From NCBI RefSeq assembly GCF_006345805.1, contig NC_043001.1, forward strand, positions 43,276,001 to 43,340,000: DNA of 64,000 bases. The letters are read 5' to 3'. Under the pieces are notes generated by a model. The model was not told where the DNA came from. It saw only the letters and a program-made list of their open reading frames with translations, and made no database searches. Source of the DNA: Octopus sinensis (Eukaryota). Below are positions 3,076 to 39,590 of this stretch, piece by piece (the stretch's first letter is position 1; each line of letters starts with the position of its first letter). The translations under genes were made by a program, and so were the position numbers.

Positions 3076-5200
3076 CTAGCTGGCATACCCAGCATTGCCA
3101 GGGCCTGTTTGTTAAGTATGCCTGGTCAGTGTAGTCTCCCACGAAGTAGAGCTGAAGAAACTGGGGCGAGGCAGCATCATGCGGCTGTAGGGAACCAATT
3201 CTATGGTAAATCTGCCCCTGTACTTTAAAGGAAGGCATGAAATGCCCATCTTGTATGATGTTGGCACCAAAGGAAGTCACTTGGAATGCACAGTTGTAGG
3301 CACATATCCGCTTGAGAAATTCATGAGAATAAGGAGACGCCCCTGTCAAAAGATCAGTCAAAGTGGGTGGAGAATCAGTCAATGTGGGTGGAGAAGAGGT
3401 ACTGTAATCATACCATTGGAACAGCACATGCTGTGAGTTTCTCCAGGCCACTTTTTAGCTCCGCAAAATTGGCAGATTGAGGACATGCAGCCTATTTGAA
3501 TGTCAGGGTGATTACTGTAGTCAATTGTAGGATCATAGTTGAATGCTGTCATTGACCAATGCAAGGTGCATGGCCTTGAGTAGGAATGTCATGCAGTCGT
3601 TGTTGTCTTTCCTCCTGTAGTCTCCATGCAGCAGCAGTTGAAGAAGCATTTCTTCTAAGTCGATCTGCACATTGTGCTGCACTCTCTGCAGTACACACAA
3701 CAGCAGTTGAAGAAGCATCTCTTGTAAGTCGATCTGTGCATTGTGCTGCAGTCTCAGCAGTTTGTGCAGCAGCAGTTGAAGAAGCATCTCTTGTAAGTCG
3801 ATCTGCACATTGTGCTGCAGTCTCTGAAGTACACACAACAGCAGTTGAAGAAGCATCTCTTGTAAGTCAATCTGCACATTGTGCTGCAGTCTATGCAGTA
3901 CACACAACAGCAGTTGAAGAAGCATCTCTTGTAAGTCGATCTGCACACTGTGCTACAGTCTCTGCAGCTCATGCAGCAGCAGTTGAGGAAGCATCTCTTG
4001 TAAGTCAATCTGCACATTGTGCTGCAGTCTATGCAGTACACACAACAGCAGTTGAAGAAGCATCTCTTGTAAGTCGATCTGCATGTTGTGCTGCAGTTTC
4101 TGCAGTACACACAACAGCAGTTGAGGAAGCATCTCTTGTAAGTCGATCTATGCATTGTGCTGCAGTCTTTGCTGCTTGTGCAGCAGCAGTTGAGGAAGCA
4201 TCTCTTGTAAGTCAATCTGCACATTGTGCTGCAGTCTCTGAAGTACACACAACAGCAGTTGAAGAAGCATCTCTTGTAAGTCGATCTGCACACTGTGCTA
4301 CAGTCTCTGCAGCTCATGCAGCAGCAGTTGAGGAAGCATCTCTTGTAAGTCAATCTGGACATTGTGCTGCAGTCTATGCAGTACACACAACAGCAGTTGA
4401 AGAAGCATCTCTTGTAAGTCGATCTGCACACTGTGCTACAGTCTCTGCAGCTCATGCAGCAGCAGTTGGGGAAGCATCTCTTGTAAGTCAATCTGCACAT
4501 TGTGCTGCAGTCTATGCAGTACACACACAGCAGTTGAAGAAGCATCTCTTGTAAGTCGATCTGCACACTGTGCTACAGTCTCTGCAGCTCATGCAGCAGC
4601 AGTTGAGGAAGCATCTCTTGTAAGTCAATCTGGACATTGTGCTGCAGTCTATGCAGTACACACAACAGCAGTTGAAGAAGCATCTCTTGTAAGTCGATCT
4701 GCACACTGTGCTACAGTCTCTGCAGCTCATGCAGCAGCAGTTGGGGAAGCATCTCTTGTAAGTCAATCTGCACATTGTGCTGCAGTCTATGCAGTACACA
4801 CAACAGCAGTTGAAGAAGCATCTCTTGTAAGTCGATCTGCATGTTGTGCTGCAGTTTCTGCAGTACACACAATAGCAGTTGAGGAAGCATCTCTTGTAAG
4901 TCGATCTGTGCATTGTGCTGCAGTCTCTGCTGCTTGTGCAGCAGCAGTTGAGGAAGCATCTCTTGTAAGTCAATCTGCACGTTGTGCTGCAGTCTCTGCA
5001 GCTCGTGCAATAGCAGTTGAGGAAGCATCTCTTGTAAGTTGAACTTGCATTGTACTGCAGTCTCTCCAGCTCATACAGCAGCTGTTGAAGAAGCATTTCA
5101 TGTTCAGCGTGCTGAACATTACTTGTTGCTCTGAGCAGCTCGTTGCGCACCAGTATGTGCTAACCGGTCATAACACTGCTCTTCCCTTTCCCTTCTTCAT
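3076..5200 (-). mobile_element. Internally deleted Helitron (N-terminal coding region joined to the 3' terminus)
   Basis: Minus-strand translation AFNYDP..IG.M...CQFCGAKKWPGET..MCCSNG and YNCAFQVTSFG...FKVQGQIYHRIGSL...PQFLQLYF are Helitron N-terminal motifs. The 3' end is a hairpin (3088-3103) plus CTAG|T at 3079-3075. The 5' end was not located. Confidence 0.85.
3600..5100 (-). repeat. 69-bp tandem array (~21-22 units) encoding 23-aa STPR-like repeats
   Basis: GAAGCATCT recurs at 3712, 3781, 3850 and onward (period 69). The minus frame reads ETAAQ(R/C)ADRLTRDASSTAAA(R/*)AA. Confidence 0.9.
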
Positions 5201-19507: not shown

Positions 19508-20492
19508 CGTCATCATCATCGTTTAATGTTCGCTTTCCATGCTAGCATGGGCTGGATGATTTTGACTGAGGGCTGGCGAACCAGATGGCTGCACCAGGCT
19601 CCAATCTTGATTTGGCAGAGTTCTACAGCTGGATGCTCTTCCTAACGCCAACCACTCCGAGAGTGTAATGGGTGCTTTTTACGGGCCACCGGCATGGGGG
19701 CCAGTCAGGCGGTACTGGCAACGACCTTGCTCGAATCTTTTTACAAATGCCACCAGCACAGGTGCCAGTAAGGTGACGTTGGTAACAATCACACTCGAAT
19801 GGTGCCCTTTTATGTGCCACCGGCACGGAAGCCAGTTGACTGCTCTGGCAATGATCACGCTCGGATGGTGCTCTTAGCACCCTACTAGCACAGGCACAAG
19901 TGCCAGTGAGGCGAGGCTGGTAACGATCACACTCGAATGGTGCCTTTTATGTGCCACAGGCACAGAAGCCAGTTAGCCGCTCTGTCACGATTATGCTTGT
20001 ATGGAGCTCTTTGCACCCGCTAGTATGGATGCCAGTCATTGAATGTGATTTTGATTTCACTTGCCTCAACAGGTCTTCGCAAGCAGAGTTTAGTGTCCAA
20101 GGAAGGAAAAGGTACGCATAGGTGGGCTGGTTACATTCCTGGCATAGGCCACAGGTTATGGTCTCATTTGGCTTGCCGGGTCTTCTCAAGCACAGCATAT
20201 TTCCAAAACTTTCGGTCGCTAGTCATTTCCTTAGTGAGGCTTTATGTTCGAAGGTCGTGCTTCACCACTTCATCCCAGGTCTTCCTGAGTTTACCTCTTC
20301 CACAGGTTCCCTCAACTGCTAGGGTGTGGTACTTTTTCACACAACCATCCTCCTCCATTCTCGCCACATGACCATACCAGTGTAGTTTTCTCTCTTGCAC
20401 ACCACATCTGATGCCTCTTAGGTCCAACATTTCTCTCAAGATACTTACACTCTGTCGAGTATGCACACTGACATTACACATCCATCGGATCA
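19508..20492 (-). mobile_element. RTE-LINE 3' fragment (family C): ORF end, repeat-rich 3'UTR and tail
   Basis: MIRWMCNVS...LHWYGHVARM...GRGK.RKTW plus (GAT)n tail. Confidence 0.9.
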
Positions 20493-20591
20493 TACTATAT
20501 ATTATATTTTGTGAAATTTTATTTAGTATTTTTAAATTGAATATTTCCGTGTAAGTTTGGAATAATATTCCCTCTTGTTATTATTATTATA

Positions 20592-32281: not shown

Positions 32282-32892
32282 TCATCATCATCATAATCGT
32301 TTAACGTCCGCTTTCCATGCTAGCATGGGTTGCACGGTTCAACTGGGGTCTGGGAAACCAGGAGGCTGTAGCAGGCCCTGTTTGATCTGGCAGTGTTTCT
32401 ACAGTTGGGTGCTTTTTACATGCCACCGGCACAGGTGCCAGACGAGGCTGGCAACGGCCACGATCAGTTGGTGCTTTTTACGTGCCAATGGCACGGAGGC
32501 CAGTCGGGGCGGTGCTGGCAATGGCCACATTCGGATGGTTCTCTTTCGTGCCACCGGCACTGGTATCACAACTACAATTTCCATTGATTTTGATCGATTT
32601 CGATTTCACTTGCCTCGACAGGTCTTCGCAAGTAGAGTTTTGTGTCCCAAGAAGGAAAATTATGCATAAGCGGACTGGCTACATCCCAGGTAGAGGCCAC
32701 GGGTTATGGTCTCACTTGTCCTGCCGGGTCTTCTCACGCACAGCATACTTCCAAAGGTCTCGGTCACTAGTCATTGCCTCGGTGAGACCTAATGTTCGAA
32801 GGCCGTGCTTCACCACCTCGTCCCAGGTTTTCCTGGGTCTACCTCTTCCACAGGTTCCCTCAACCGCTAGGGTGTGGCACTTTTTCACACTG
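32282..32892 (-). mobile_element. RTE-LINE 3' fragment (family C)
   Basis: Tail, 3'UTR units and ORF end. Confidence 0.9.
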
Positions 32893-33355: not shown

Positions 33356-33566
33356 TTCACCCTTTATAGAGGCTTGCAAACAATTTTCTAAATGTCAGTG
33401 TGATAATATCATTGATTTATGTTCAAAAGAAATGGATCAACCTGACTCCCCCTATATAAACAAAGCAAGATTGCTACGAGGAACTGCTCACTTTTATATG
33501 GGTGCTTTTACTGATGCCATAACTGACTTTGAGGATTTAATTCTAAGTGAAAATGTTAATAAAAAT
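33356..33566 (+). CDS. TOMM70: TOMM70 exon 6
   Basis: tttcag|; SPFIEACKQF...IIDLCSKEM...ARLLRGTAHFYMG; |gtaagt. Confidence 0.92.
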
Positions 33567-34744
33567 GTAAGTGTTTCATAATCACAACATTCTTTATCTG
33601 TTTTAGATTTTTTAGACAGAAGTATTTTGAAGGTTTTTATTTAAAATTTTAAATATATGATAAAATATGTCAGTTGACATAAATAACTAATTCTGTACGA
33701 CGATATTTATCCTCATCTTGTTTGTTGCTAACATGTTTCAGCTGATATACCCTCCAGCCTTCATCAGGTGTCTTGGGGAAATTTTGAACCTAGGTTCTTA
33801 TTCCTGAGGTATTTTTTGATGTTGTTATTATTCAGGTCACTGCCTGGAATCAAACTTGGAATCTTGGGCTTAGTAGCCCGAATTCCTAACCACTCTGCCA
33901 TATGCCTGTGGGCAATTATGGAGTGAATTTTAGGGCTTATAAATCTAATATTCTCCTATCCTTCCTTAATAGCGGTTCCCATATGCTGTTCATAGCTGCA
34001 CTTGGTCTGCTTAGGAGGATGTTGTGTCCTGGCATATGTGCTGCTTCTTTTAGTTTCCGTATTTTCCAGTGGTAACTTCATCCCACAGGGGGAGGTGGTC
34101 TCCATTTTTCCATACATTATCAGCTATACCCGATTTATCAATATCTCCACATGTCACAGCTTTGTGATGTTCCTCTACTCTCCACTCCAATTATGAAGAA
34201 AAGAGAGGATGAAACTGATAAACTGTTCACAGTCTGTCTACCCTATGCGAAAGGCCTCTCCAAAAAGATACAAAAGATATGCAGCCCATATGACATCAAG
34301 ACAGTATTCAAAAGTAATACAACACTTCGCAAATGTCTCCTTCAAGTAAAACCACCAATACAAGAGAATATGACTAAGAACTGTGTGTACTCCATCCCAT
34401 GCAGCTGTTGTAGGTTATACAAAGGCGAAACATGCTGCCCCCTCAAAATAAGGGTAGAGGAACATTGCAAATCTGTGACATAGGGAGATATTGATAAATC
34501 GGGTATAGCTGATCATGTATGGAAAAATGGAGACCACCTTCCCCTGTGGGATGAAGTTAAAATAATAGACAGAGAACACCACTGGAAAATATGAAAACTA
34601 AAAGATGCAGCACATATGCTAGGACACAACAACCTCCTAAGCAGACCAAGTGCAGATATGAGTAGCATATGGAAACTGGTATTAAGGAAGGATAGGAAAA
34701 TATTAGATTTATAAGCCCTAAAATTCGCTCCATAATTGCCCACA

Positions 34745-34816
34745 GGCATATGGCGTAGTGGTTAAGAGCACGGGCTACTAACCCCAAGATTCCAAGTTTG
34801 ATTCCAGGTAGTGACC
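34745..34816 (+). other. tRNA-like Pol III cassette inside the Penelope pLTR (mirror copy at 33835-33906, minus strand)
   Basis: A box TGGCGTAGTGG, anticodon-like arm GGG-CTACTAA-CCC, B box GTTTGATTCC; acceptor stem is poor, so not a functional tRNA. Confidence 0.65.
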
Positions 34817-34884
34817 TGAATAATAAGAATAACAACATCAAAAAATACCGTAGGAATGAGAACCCAGGTTCGAAATTTCCCCAA

Positions 34885-34927
34885 GACATCTGATGAAGGC
34901 TGGAGGGTATATCAGCCGAAACGTGTT
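34885..34927 (+). ncRNA. Hammerhead ribozyme motif in the Penelope pLTR (mirror copy at 33730-33772, minus strand)
   Basis: CUGAUGA-A-GGCUG(GAGGGUAUAU)CAGCC-GAAAC; core and stem II intact, stems I and III imperfect. Confidence 0.65.
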
Positions 34928-35056
34928 AACAAACAAGATGAGGACAAGTGTCCGGCAATTGTATATAATGTACATAATTCCTCATCTCTTAAATATAGAA
35001 CTGTATTAACTAATTCTGTTGCTTCCTATTATTATTTTCTTTTCTTTATGTTTTAG

Positions 35057-35191
35057 GTGAAAGTCAGTGCTTTAATCAAGAAAGCTAGTTGCTACAGTCA
35101 ACAAAGCATGGCTATAGAAGCTATGGAAATGTATAGTGAAGCCATTAACATTGACCCAGAAAATGTTGATATATATTTCCATCGAGGTCAA
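35057..35191 (+). CDS. TOMM70: TOMM70 exon 7
   Basis: ttttag|; VKVSALIKKAS...AINIDPENVDIYFHRGQ; |gtaagt. Confidence 0.95.
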
Positions 35192-35689
35192 GTAAGTTAT
35201 CTCCCAACTTAACCATTACTCACAAGCAAATATATCTTAGTAGCATGTACTATGCTTTCATTAATTGTTTTTTTAGGTGGCTATGAAGTTGCAAATAGAC
35301 ATCTCCTTAGCCCTCCCACCCTTGATCAAGCAAAACAATCTATTTCATTAATTTGCTTTAAATGATCTTTCATTTTGAGAAGTATGTTTTGCAATATAAT
35401 GATGTGATTATATTACAGCAATACTTTGAAATCATTTTTACTGCAGGCAGGCTGTGTGTTAAGAAGATCACTTATCAGTTGTGTGGTTTTTGGCATCCAT
35501 CCCACTGCATAGCACTTTAAGCAAGTGTCTTCTACTGTGGTCTTGGGTTGAACAATGCCCTGTGAAATTTGATAGCTGGAGATGTTACAGAAACCCATCA
35601 AGTGTGTTTGTCTCTGTGAGTCTTTGCACTCATACCATTTGAACAATAATTATGGCCTGATGCATAAAAATATGAAATAAAGTGCTTAC

Positions 35690-36050: not shown

Positions 36051-37282
36051 CTCTAATTATGTCTTTGATGAGATTGTTGATACAGAGTGAAAGATTTATA
36101 GTTTTTTGTTTTGCATGTGTGCTCATTTAATTTAGAAATTAGCGTCATTGTCATTTTAATATCCTCTCTTCCATATTTGCATGGATTGGATGAGTAGATC
36201 CTATCACCAGCCCTCGCCTGTTGACATAGAAGATTGGAAATGAAAGATGCTGATGCTTCTTTATAACTGTCATGCAATGTGAAGATGAGAGGACATGAAC
36301 ACACACACATACATATGGCAGGCTTCTTACGGTTTTCTATTTACAAAATCCGTTGAGAAGTTTTTGCTCTGCCTAAGGTTGTCATAGAAGATTTCTCCAA
36401 GGTGGCTCGCAGTGGAACCAGGGCTGTCGCATGACTTTTAGAGGCCCCCTGCAACTTTTTATTTCGAGGCTCCATCTCTTCAATCAAAATTTATAACCTA
36501 CATACTTTTTATTCATAGCTATGTTTTACTTTATTCTATCTGAAGTTCAATATTTTACGTTACCGTAAAGAACGTCTTTAAAAGTACAAGTTGAATTCAT
36601 TTAGGGCTGGAACTATCGTATTATTTCATGTTTAGGAAGGCCAACATTTAATAGGGTTGAATATTTATTTGATAGACTCACAAATATCAGAAGACAAGCA
36701 TTTCAAAATAACAACTATATGCTGAGAAGTTTAGGTAAATTTATAGTTCCACATCCAGCTCAATTTCAGTAGTAAATAATTGTTTTCCCACTTTTTTTTT
36801 TTTTTTTTAGTGCAATCATTTTAGTTGACCTCGTAAGCTGTTGGAAATGCATTTTTCCCCATGGAAAACAGAGGTGGGGGCGACCTTGGAAATTCCCTTT
36901 TCTGACCCCACCTCCAGCATTATTTTTGTTGAATAATGTGTGGGGTGGGATGGAACTGTGGAAATTCCCCTTTCTGACCCTGATTTCACTTGGAAAAGTT
37001 TTTCGGTATTTTTTTTTTCTTTTTTTTTTTTTATGTTATCATCTTAGATGACCTCTTTATATCCTGCAAATGCATTTTTTTTGTGGAAAATGGAGAGGTG
37101 GGGTGCACCCTCAGGAATCCTCCAGCCCTGATTTCACCAGAAATTTTTTTTTCAACTTTTTGCTGTTATCATCTTAGTTGAGCTCCTAATATGCCGCAAA
37201 TGCATTGTTTCTGTTATCAAGTCTTTGAGAACATTCACATCTGTTTTTCAAAAATACATAATTTGAAATAGACTTGATAACA

Positions 37283-37409
37283 GGAATGGCTGTGTGGCAA
37301 GTAGGTTGCTTACCTACCACATGGTTTCTGGATTCAGTGTCTTCTACCAAAGCCTTGTGAGTGGATTTAGTAGACGGAAACTGAAAGAAGCCCATCCTAT
37401 ATGTGTGTA
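37283..37409 (+). mobile_element. SINE family B 5' half (split by LINE insertion; 3' half at 39590-39750)
   Basis: Homology to 15342-15752 resumes after the LINE tail. Confidence 0.8.
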
Positions 37410-39590
37410 TAAGGGCCTTAGAGTAAATGTAGCGAAGACCAAAGTTATAGTATGCAGAAAGGCGAACTCAGTACACCCCCCATCGGGCAGGTGGCCCTGC
37501 TCAAGCTGTAGGAAAGGTGTAGGTAGAAACTCCATAAGATGCACCCAGTGTAAGCTATGGACGCATAGGAGGTGCAGCAACATCGAAGGGAAATTAACTG
37601 ATAAGATAGCTTTCATGTGCGGCAGATGCACAGGGACAATAGACACCACAGACACTCAAAAAACAGATTCCATCACACTCCAGGGGGATAAACTAGAAGT
37701 AGTTGATAGTTTCCGCTACCTGGGTGACCAAGTTAGTAGTGGGGGTGGATGCTCAGAGAGTGTCACCACTAGAATACAAATAGCCTGGGCAAAGTTCAGA
37801 AAGCTTCTACCCCTACTGGCGACAAAGGGTCTCTCACTCAGAGTGAAAGGTAGATTGTATGATGCATGTGTGTGAGCTGCCATGCTTCACGGCAGTGAAA
37901 CATGGGCCGTGACTGCAGAGGACATGCGTAGACTTGAAAGAAATGAAGCTAGCATGATCCGCTGGATGTGTAATGTCAGTGTGAATGCACAACAGAGTGT
38001 AAGCACCCTGAGAGAAATGCTAGGCATAAGAAGCATCAGATGCGGTGTGCAAGAGCGACGCTTGCGATGGTATGGTCATGTACTGCGGATGGATGAGGAG
38101 AGATGTGTGAAGAAGTGCCACTCCCGAACAGTTGAAGGAATCAGGGGGAGAGGTAGACCCAGGAAGACATGGGATGAGGTAGTCAAGCATGACCTCAGAG
38201 CGTTGGGCCTCACTGAGGCAATGGCGAAGGACCGAGACCTCTGGAGATGTGCTGTGACTACTAAGACCCGGGATGCTCCCGGCACCAGTTCCGCATACAC
38301 CCTGCACATCCAAAGTACCTTGGATCCTGGAACATCTCGCTGTGCTTGAGGAGACCTGTCGAGTCTAGTGCATATACATGAACATCGAACCAAATATCAA
38401 TGGAAACAGTAGTTGTGATACCTGTGCCGGTGACACATAGAAAGCACCATCTGATCGTGGCCGTCGCCAGTGCAGCCTCCACTGGCTTCTGTACCGGTGG
38501 CACATAAAAAGCTCCATCCGAACGTGACCGATGCCAACCCCGCTTCGAATGGCTTCTGTGCCGGTGGCACATGAACATCGAACCAAATATCAATGGAAAC
38601 AGTAGTTGTGATACCTGTGCCGGTGACACATATAAAGCACCATCCGAACGTGGCCGATGCCAGTGCAGCCTCCACTGGCTTCTGTGCCGGTGGCACATAA
38701 AAAGCACCATCCGAACATGACCGATGCCAACCCCGCCTCGAATGGCTTCTGTGCCGGTGGCACATGAATATCGAACCAAATATCAATGGAAACAGTAGTT
38801 GTGATACCTGTGCCAGTGACACATATAAAGCACCGTCCGATCGAGGCCGTTGCCAGTGCAGCCTCCACTGGCTTCTGTGCCATAAAGGCAACATCCGAAC
38901 GTGGCCGATGCCAGCACCGCGCCGACTGGCTTCTGTGCCAGTGGGACATAAAAAGCACCAACCGATCGTTGAACATCTCGCTGTGCTTGAGGAGACCTGT
39001 TGAGTCAAGTGCATGTACATGAACATCGAACCAAATATCAATGGAAACAGTAGTAGTTGTGATACCTGTGCCGGTGACACATAAAAAGCACCATCCGAAC
39101 GTGGCCGTCGCCAGTGCAGCCTCCACTGGCTTCTGTGCCGATGGTACATAAAAAGCACCATCCGAACGTGACCGATGCCAACCCCGCCTCGAATGGGTTC
39201 TGTGCCGGTGGCACATAAAAAGCAACATCCGAACGTGGCCGATGCCAGCACTGCCCCGACTGGCTTCTGTGCCGGTGGCACATAAAAATCACCATCTGAA
39301 TGTGACCGATGCCAGCACCGCCTTGACTGGCTTCTGTGCCGGTAGCACAAAAGAAAAAAGCACCAACTGATCGTGGCCGATGCCAGACCCCTCTGGCACC
39401 TGTGCAGGTGGCACGTAAAAAGCACCCACTACACTCGCGGAGTGGTTGGCGTTAGGAAGGCCATCCAGCTGTAGAAACACTGCCAGACCAGACTGGAGCC
39501 TGGGGCAGCCCCTGGCTCCCCAGACCCCGGTCGAACCGTCCAACCCGTGCTAGCGCGGAAAACGGACGTTAAATGATGATGATGATGATG
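37410..39590 (+). mobile_element. 5'-truncated RTE-clade LINE (family C), longest copy, with expanded 3'UTR minisatellite
   Basis: GLRVNVAKTK..., PHD-like Cys cluster (PCSSC..SIRCTQC..W.H..C..CGRC), LEVVDSFRYLG, MLHGSETW, RRLRWYGHV.RM, GRGRPRKTW; one TGA at 37873; (GAT)n tail. Confidence 0.93.
38330..39430 (+). repeat. Complex GC-rich tandem repeat (~60-bp units in larger blocks) within the LINE 3'UTR
   Basis: Recurrent GGCTTCTGTGCCGGTGGCACATAAAAAGCACCATCCGAACGTG and GAACCAAATATCAATGGAAACAGTAGTTGTGATACC. Confidence 0.9.

Follow-up and report, generated by a model that had tools for sequence, protein, structure and literature searches.

A Penelope-like element (PLE) family in Octopus sinensis opens its terminal repeat (pLTR) with a tRNA-like head that carries A and B boxes, followed by a hammerhead ribozyme and the start of a long open reading frame (ORF). 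Judged from its sequence, the family is a Penelope/Poseidon-type retrotransposon, and the head is a real, family-wide variation on elements of this type. We propose that the head is an RNA polymerase (Pol) III promoter marking the 5′ end of the element's RNA, probably that of the coding RNA as well, and that the abundant short, SINE-like copies are by-products; we regard this reading as evenly balanced between right and wrong. A fuller version is tentative and, in our view, somewhat more apt to fail than to hold: an autonomous coding retrotransposon whose 2.6-kb messenger would be made by Pol III from a captured tRNA promoter, its terminators shed, translated without a normal cap and spawning thousands of SINE-like copies of its 5′ end, so that a SINE would be born inside its own partner.

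Structure of the insertion

Within the window (the whole 64-kb stretch of DNA analysed), positions 33697–35006 are a single Penelope-like insertion composed of an inverted arm and a 5′-truncated arm and bounded by a 13-bp target duplication. This arrangement is that described for PLEs (PMC8557442). Its features are as follows.

33684–33696: target-site duplication, left copy, 13 bp, identical to 35007–35019
33697–34181, minus strand: inverted left arm, with GIY-YIG end, head and hammerhead, without 3′ tail
33730–33772, minus strand: minimal hammerhead of the left arm (CTGATGA 33767–33761, GAAAC 33739–33735), cleavage triplet deleted
33831–33907, minus strand: tRNA-like head of the left arm (A box 33900–33890, two changes; B box 33857–33846, C>T)
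34182–35006, plus strand: right arm, 5′-truncated
34182–34714, plus strand: 3′ end of the PLE ORF, GIY-YIG endonuclease with CCHH motif (two Cys and two His)
34715–34743, plus strand: spacer from stop codon to head, 29 nt
34744–34820, plus strand: tRNA-like head of the right arm (A box 34751–34761, B box 34794–34805)
34821–34835, plus strand: (TAA)n/(CAA)n linker, 3–172 nt long among copies
34856–34858, plus strand: ATG that opens the ORF where the repeat stands 5′ of the body
34885–34927, plus strand: minimal type I hammerhead of the right arm (stem I 34885–34889/34923–34927, core 34890–34896, bulge, stem II, GAAAC 34918–34922), 3 nt with the cleavage site missing
34978–35006, plus strand: optional PLE tail of about 29 nt, found in some copies and not in others; 3′ ends cluster at 34977–34978 and 35005–35006
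35007–35019: target-site duplication, right copy

The two arms are 88% identical across their alignment. A first-pass annotation had placed the cassette in both of them, and its A box, CTGATGA and GAAAC are indeed there, with the B box region at 34794–34805. The right-arm A box reads TGGCGTAGTGG (34751–34761); the right-arm B box has two CpG-type changes, and a C>T change lies in the B box core of both arms. Behind the TAA linker, the right arm continues for 171 nt that contain the hammerhead. The frame at 34182–34714 ends in a TAA at 34712–34714 and has two internal stops; this copy is dead. CCHH and GIY-YIG are the names that we presume apply to its motifs.

The insertion sits in an intron of a TOM70-like gene, two exons of which match TOM70 with E values of 7.5e-4 and 7e-15. 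The insertion lies between these exons (33360–33568 and 35060–35193), its end about 50 nt short of a 3′ splice site, and its long inverted repeat would make a hairpin in the TOM70-like pre-mRNA. Elsewhere in the window, fragments of another non-LTR retrotransposon lie at 37267–38349 (plus strand; presumably RTE-like), with related pieces at 32656–32890 and 20108–20497. The first of these is followed by a 65–193-nt tandem repeat at 38376–39346, and a minisatellite with a 69-nt unit occupies 3494–5103.

The head is a family-wide feature

Exact seed matches in the 2.72-Gb genome numbered 6,473 for the 3′ end, 3,390 for the ribozyme, 1,967 for the head, 739 for the ORF end and 50 for the repeat–body junction. 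Reversed control seeds gave 0 matches each, and true copy numbers exceed these exact-seed counts. The head was present, in some cases with deletions, in all 30 loci seeded on the ORF end, which bears out the view that the cassette belongs to the family and not to the window copy alone, and rules out a one-off SINE insertion.

A consensus built from genomic copies, as the first-pass annotation had proposed, has full A and B boxes and a hammerhead that folds. In the consensus head (31 copies) the two boxes are complete and spaced as in a tRNA. Compared with 45 distinct tRNA genes of the same genome, a set covering 10 anticodon types only and thus not fixing the donor, the head matched tRNA-Arg(TCT) best (score 59, z 6.9 against shuffles); 300 random 72-mers from the window scored at most 44.5 against the same set. 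ARAGORN called no tRNA within the 64-kb window, Rfam matched neither tRNA nor hammerhead at E ≤ 10 in the element or in 20 other copies, and a cloverleaf fold of the head was not obtained (minimum free energy z +0.85). A and B boxes kept without a cloverleaf or a tRNA call are the usual state of SINE heads, and a 5′ tRNA-derived head with both boxes is a trait that the family shares with tRNA-derived SINEs, even with no call from Rfam or ARAGORN.

These missing calls lend some weight to a different reading, in which the head is a passive tRNA-derived relic and the pile-up of copy ends described below comes from cDNA snap-back, a reverse transcriptase stall at a hairpin or a chance Pol II start. 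We consider it unlikely. The consensus speaks against it, as the A and B boxes are intact whereas the acceptor, D and T stems are broken. Among copies, the A box, the B box and the rest of the head have decayed alike (6.4, 4.8 and 6.8%), as expected of dead copies, so selection on the boxes is not evident.

The coding unit and its relatives

Walking upstream yielded a unit of about 2.6 kb (2,641 nt) with a continuous reverse transcriptase (RT) and GIY-YIG frame. The unit is ordered as head, TAA linker, ATG, hammerhead, tail, body, ORF, stop and head again; long copies have a repeat, truncated to varying extents, that directly adjoins the body. The start codon lies within the repeat (ATG 34856), 112 nt behind the tRNA +1 point, and the frame reads through the hammerhead. 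One locus (L209) starts at the head and has 401 open codons from this ATG, and a relative (P0003) that is 54% identical in RT and endonuclease (EN) keeps the hammerhead-encoded peptide at its N terminus. The commonest indels in the stretch from ATG to hammerhead are 3 and 9 nt long, and in frame. A 38-nt intron joining the pLTR ATG to the ORF had been considered and was dropped, as an in-frame ATG lies further upstream.

The RT domain is recognized by Pfam (RVT_1, E 1.4e-10 on L197), and 44 longer relatives were found, the best 54% identical. The C-terminal GIY-YIG with CCHH lies in the same ORF, in a continuous consensus frame matched by relatives; for the 97-aa GIY-YIG fragment in the window, Pfam gave no match. 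The consensus translation has no zinc-finger-like linker between RT and EN, a criterion for Penelope/Poseidon (PMC8557442). The layout is likewise that of EN+ PLEs, in which the pLTR forms a partial tandem, an inverted 5′-truncated copy occurs and a 30–40-bp tail stands at one end (PMC8557442); here the tail is about 29 nt. With an ORF and PLE-type ends, the full unit differs from TRIMp3 elements, which have two LTRs, a PBS and a PPT and no ORF.

A sister PLE family without the head was not found in the genome: a distant-relative query returned 30 loci, all 86–95% identical to the head-bearing family, so the state before capture was not seen. Among metagenome contigs of related PLEs with at least 300 nt behind the ORF, a strict pair of A and B boxes occurred in 0 of 39, a loose pair in 2 and a hammerhead core in 21. 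The two loose pairs (L386 and L420) possibly arose by chance. ARAGORN run at a low threshold also gave hits, at best candidate tRNAs, on the related PLEs. Head, ribozyme and body are also represented on contigs under three other organism labels, a result that speaks to presence only.

Many copies begin at the head

The copy ends point to an RNA start at the head, and of the two options in the first-pass annotation, pLTR transcription driven by the head fits best. For 90 head-seeded loci (the first 90 usable of 1,967 matches, all on contig C1), the end upstream of the seed lay at 0–8 nt in 16, at 9–19 nt in 57 and at 24 nt or more in 17. The 57 ends have modes at 12, equal to tRNA +1, and at 19, a fold-back form 7 nt further on; one of them (L040) is linked to the ORF through a deletion. 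Position 34744 is thus both the tRNA +1 point and the modal 5′ end of short copies. Per nt, the end rate falls from 0.10 at the head start to 0.0075 further upstream.

Other seeds gave similar counts, with the reservation that the samples overlap in a few loci and that both arms of one insertion may count twice. By script, 43 of 70 ribozyme-seeded loci were cut before the head start, 20 stopped there and 7 continued; by eye, 27 reached the head start, of which 22 stopped and 5 continued. Among 70 loci seeded further 3′, 21 reached the head start, with 13 stopping and 8 continuing. Of the 50 copies spanning the repeat–body junction, four start at the head and run 34–335 nt into the body; two or three extend back as far as an ORF end. 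No copy running unbroken from head to final tail was seen among those examined.

Three observations favour the passive relic. A palindrome, TGCCC-AC-GGGCA, stands at the head start and is included in 12 of the 90 ends, so that some of the pile-up may be due to cDNA snap-back; an inverted arm lies next to 44 of 72 head-start copies; and spacer and head could form a hairpin in a long RNA (−16 kcal/mol, z −1.0), which also counts against the promoter reading. On the other side, 40 of the 57 ends fall at 9–16 nt and lack the upstream palindrome arm, the stronger stem II of the hammerhead yields no pile-up, and a stalled reverse transcriptase would presumably leave ends at the 3′ foot of a hairpin, not at its apex. 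The spacer itself (34715–34743) weakly resembles a decayed inverted copy of the start of the head (shuffle P 0.055), as if the 3′ repeat of the master had come as a head-start copy with a fold-back end.

Short and ORF-linked copies appear to form one lineage

Most head-bearing copies are short, and their head, microsatellite and partner tail have the anatomy of a SINE. Both facts would fit an independent SINE lineage, a Penelope parasite with masters of its own that later recombined onto the ORF. We judge this very improbable. Between 72 short and 45 ORF-linked copies there is no diagnostic substitution, the ages are alike (4.6 versus 5.3%, P 0.16) and one linked sub-lineage (P 1e-8) is common to both classes; in this sample of 117 copies, the non-autonomous lineage with its own masters that characterizes SINEs is not seen. 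The tail of the short form is also the N-terminal coding sequence of the ORF, with its recurrent in-frame indels of 3 and 9 nt, and PAc, the Penelope element of Anolis carolinensis, needs an RNA that extends past the copied part into the ORF (PMC11167929), a stretch missing from solo short copies.

Internal deletions of at least 7 nt affected the tail far more often in copies linked to the ORF (18 of 41) than in those that start at the head (6 of 62; P 9e-5), the two groups being of similar age (L031–L060, L091–L180). Head-to-tail hammerhead arrays, a retrozyme trait, were absent from the 30 mapped loci. One short direct tandem was noted elsewhere: L329 and L330 (G000:C2:28972411 and 28972802) are two same-orientation junctions 391 bp apart, with 77 nt of body each.

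The hammerhead is a minimal PLE type and seems dispensable

The consensus hammerhead comprises a 5-bp stem I, CUGAUGA, one bulged A, a 6-bp stem II and GAAAC-GUU, with a palindromic centre. It has the short helix I, long helix II, bulge after A9 and palindromic 15.2–16.2 of the minimal PLE hammerhead, a type thought to act as a dimer (PMC4209133). The stems had first been described as imperfect. This is so neither for stem I, which is sound (5 bp), nor for stem III, which the minimal type lacks by design; the copy is nevertheless defective, as 3 nt with the cleavage site are missing from both window arms, and so cannot cleave.

Both core halves are kept in 22 of 96 copies spanning the hammerhead, which lies within the coding frame of the ORF; one linked sub-lineage alters N7, the free core position. 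The 3-nt deletion recurs in 16 of about 100 copies, both window arms among them. It is in frame (window 34923), occurs in short and long copies and is tied to no other variant; slippage that recurs, or a master with a dead ribozyme, could account for it.

Among junction copies, 6 of 50 (tail positions 91–99) had hinted at copy ends at the cleavage site, which a new sample did not bear out: of 70 copies seeded 3′ of the ribozyme, just 2 start no more than 6 nt from the site, with no pile-up of 5′ ends. Together with the recurrent site deletions and a window copy that cannot cleave, this tells against the dedicated, self-cleaved RNA of about 180 nt envisaged in the first-pass annotation. The lack of 5′ ends at the site agrees with PAc, for which hammerhead cleavage is not needed (PMC11167929).

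The coding unit is free of Pol III terminators

Pol III read-through predicts that TTTT is absent from the sense strand, a prediction tested on the 2,641-nt unit. The unit has 0 TTTT, where 4.7 are expected by base shuffle (P 0.007) and 2.6 by dinucleotide shuffle (P 0.05); the evidence is weak under a synonymous-codon shuffle (P 0.13) and stands at P 0.011 when scaled to relatives. In every 10-nt bin, TTTT occurs in at most 8% of copies, and 10 of 22 decayed single copies of the family are free of it. By contrast, all 56 related PLE coding regions of at least 1.5 kb (80 loci fetched) contain at least one TTTT, the 24 of similar T content among them. The test concerns a single family and draws its 56 controls from single contigs of other hosts, some of them not independent; GGGG is also absent from the unit. 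We take the absence of TTTT as supportive, not as proof, of Pol III transcription of the unit, with which the sequence is compatible.

This result bears on a further alternative, in which the head is a working Pol III promoter for short RNAs only and the coding RNA comes from a Pol II promoter or from read-through. Short copies do far outnumber long ones (6,473 matches to the 3′-end seed against 50 to the junction seed), the internal promoter of Drosophila virilis Penelope is LINE-like and has a downstream promoter element (PMC2377424), and a capped RNA would make translation easier to explain. However, no Pol III terminator separates the head from the ORF end, head-start copies enter the body, and the whole ORF lacks TTTT, unlike its relatives. 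We consider this alternative improbable, slightly more so than the passive relic.

The favoured reading, Pol III transcription of the coding RNA, faces objections of its own. Pol III RNAs are normally short and uncapped, and the unit has no Pol III terminator. The autonomous partners of Pol III elements, it has been argued, must use Pol II (PMC10886601). In RNA-seq from a related organism the two strands were covered to the same depth, peaks marking starts or ends were absent and the profile followed copy number. The identity of the polymerase, the translation of an uncapped RNA and its termination are points that we infer.

A model for transcription and copying

We hypothesize that, where a repeat stands 5′ of the body, TFIIIC would bind its A and B boxes and transcription would start at about tRNA +1 or −2. 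The RNA is predicted to run through the start codon, the hammerhead and the RT–endonuclease ORF. The encoded protein would then prime reverse transcription internally at two positions close behind the hammerhead, as has been shown for anole PAc (PMC11167929). Use of the 5′ repeat would lead to run-off at the RNA 5′ end after about 260 nt and give abundant SINE-like short copies; use of the downstream repeat would give ORF-carrying, 5′-truncated copies such as 33697–35006. Internal priming would explain the two 3′ ends, the flood of copies of about 260 nt and why these have no lineage of their own. To cut, the hammerhead would have to dimerize or be helped by a protein; for copying it seems unneeded.

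Relation to known elements

The closest parallel is PAc (PMC11167929). Like the family described here, it has a single ORF for RT and C-terminal GIY-YIG, a start codon within the pLTR, a hammerhead that overlaps the beginning of the ORF, two 3′ ends a short tail apart, tandem and inverted structures and an apparently dispensable ribozyme. The accessible text on PAc mentions no tRNA-like head, whereas the repeat of the octopus family opens with A and B boxes at which copy ends pile up. D. virilis Penelope (PMC2377424) is similar in that an internal pLTR promoter drives the downstream ORF. That promoter resembles TATA-less LINE promoters and overlaps an intron; the octopus family needs no intron, as its ATG is in frame, and its candidate promoter is of tRNA type.

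Among non-coding elements, a Pol III promoter is combined with a hammerhead in schistosome SINE-like repeats (SM-alpha; review PMC6765202), which are often tandem; here, in contrast, a protein-coding element has the cassette as its terminal repeat, with a ribozyme of the minimal PLE type. In the TRIMp3 elements Cassandra, Helenus and Ajax (PMC10886601), too, a Pol III promoter of small-RNA-gene origin sets the RNA start from within a terminal repeat, but all of these are short, non-autonomous LTR elements, not a PLE with its own ORF. Non-LTR retrozymes (PMC7229834; 10.64898/2026.07.22.740005) share with the short copies their length, hammerhead, pLTR relationship, lack of coding capacity and presumed mobilization by PLEs, and have been described as non-autonomous PLE derivatives (10.64898/2026.07.22.740005). 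They differ in forming head-to-tail arrays that give rise to circular RNAs, where the short copies are solo or inverted, and the accessible portions of these two sources mention no Pol III promoter for them. The bridge between PLEs, SINEs and retrozymes that the first-pass annotation proposed is therefore partly in print already (PMC6765202, 10.64898/2026.07.22.740005).

No PLE with a tRNA-type promoter was found in the open-access main texts searched, and a repeat-library entry for the family may already exist. Two papers on octopus repeats (PMC13282606, PMC8967140) and one butterfly paper (PMC6685494) showed no such element in a word search of their accessible text.

Implications

On the prevailing view, only short non-coding parasites such as SINEs and TRIMp3 have Pol III promoters. 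If our preferred reading is true, a Penelope element with a tRNA promoter for its coding RNA would break the rule that autonomous partners use Pol II (PMC10886601), would raise the question of how an uncapped 2.6-kb RNA gets translated and may offer an escape route from Pol II-directed silencing. It would also supply a testable origin for SINE-like elements, in which internal priming, as in PAc, copies the 5′ repeat into short elements that bear a promoter. Even on the weaker readings, the family has dispersed thousands of A/B-box cassettes and provides a clean genomic map of the 5′ end of a PLE transcript.
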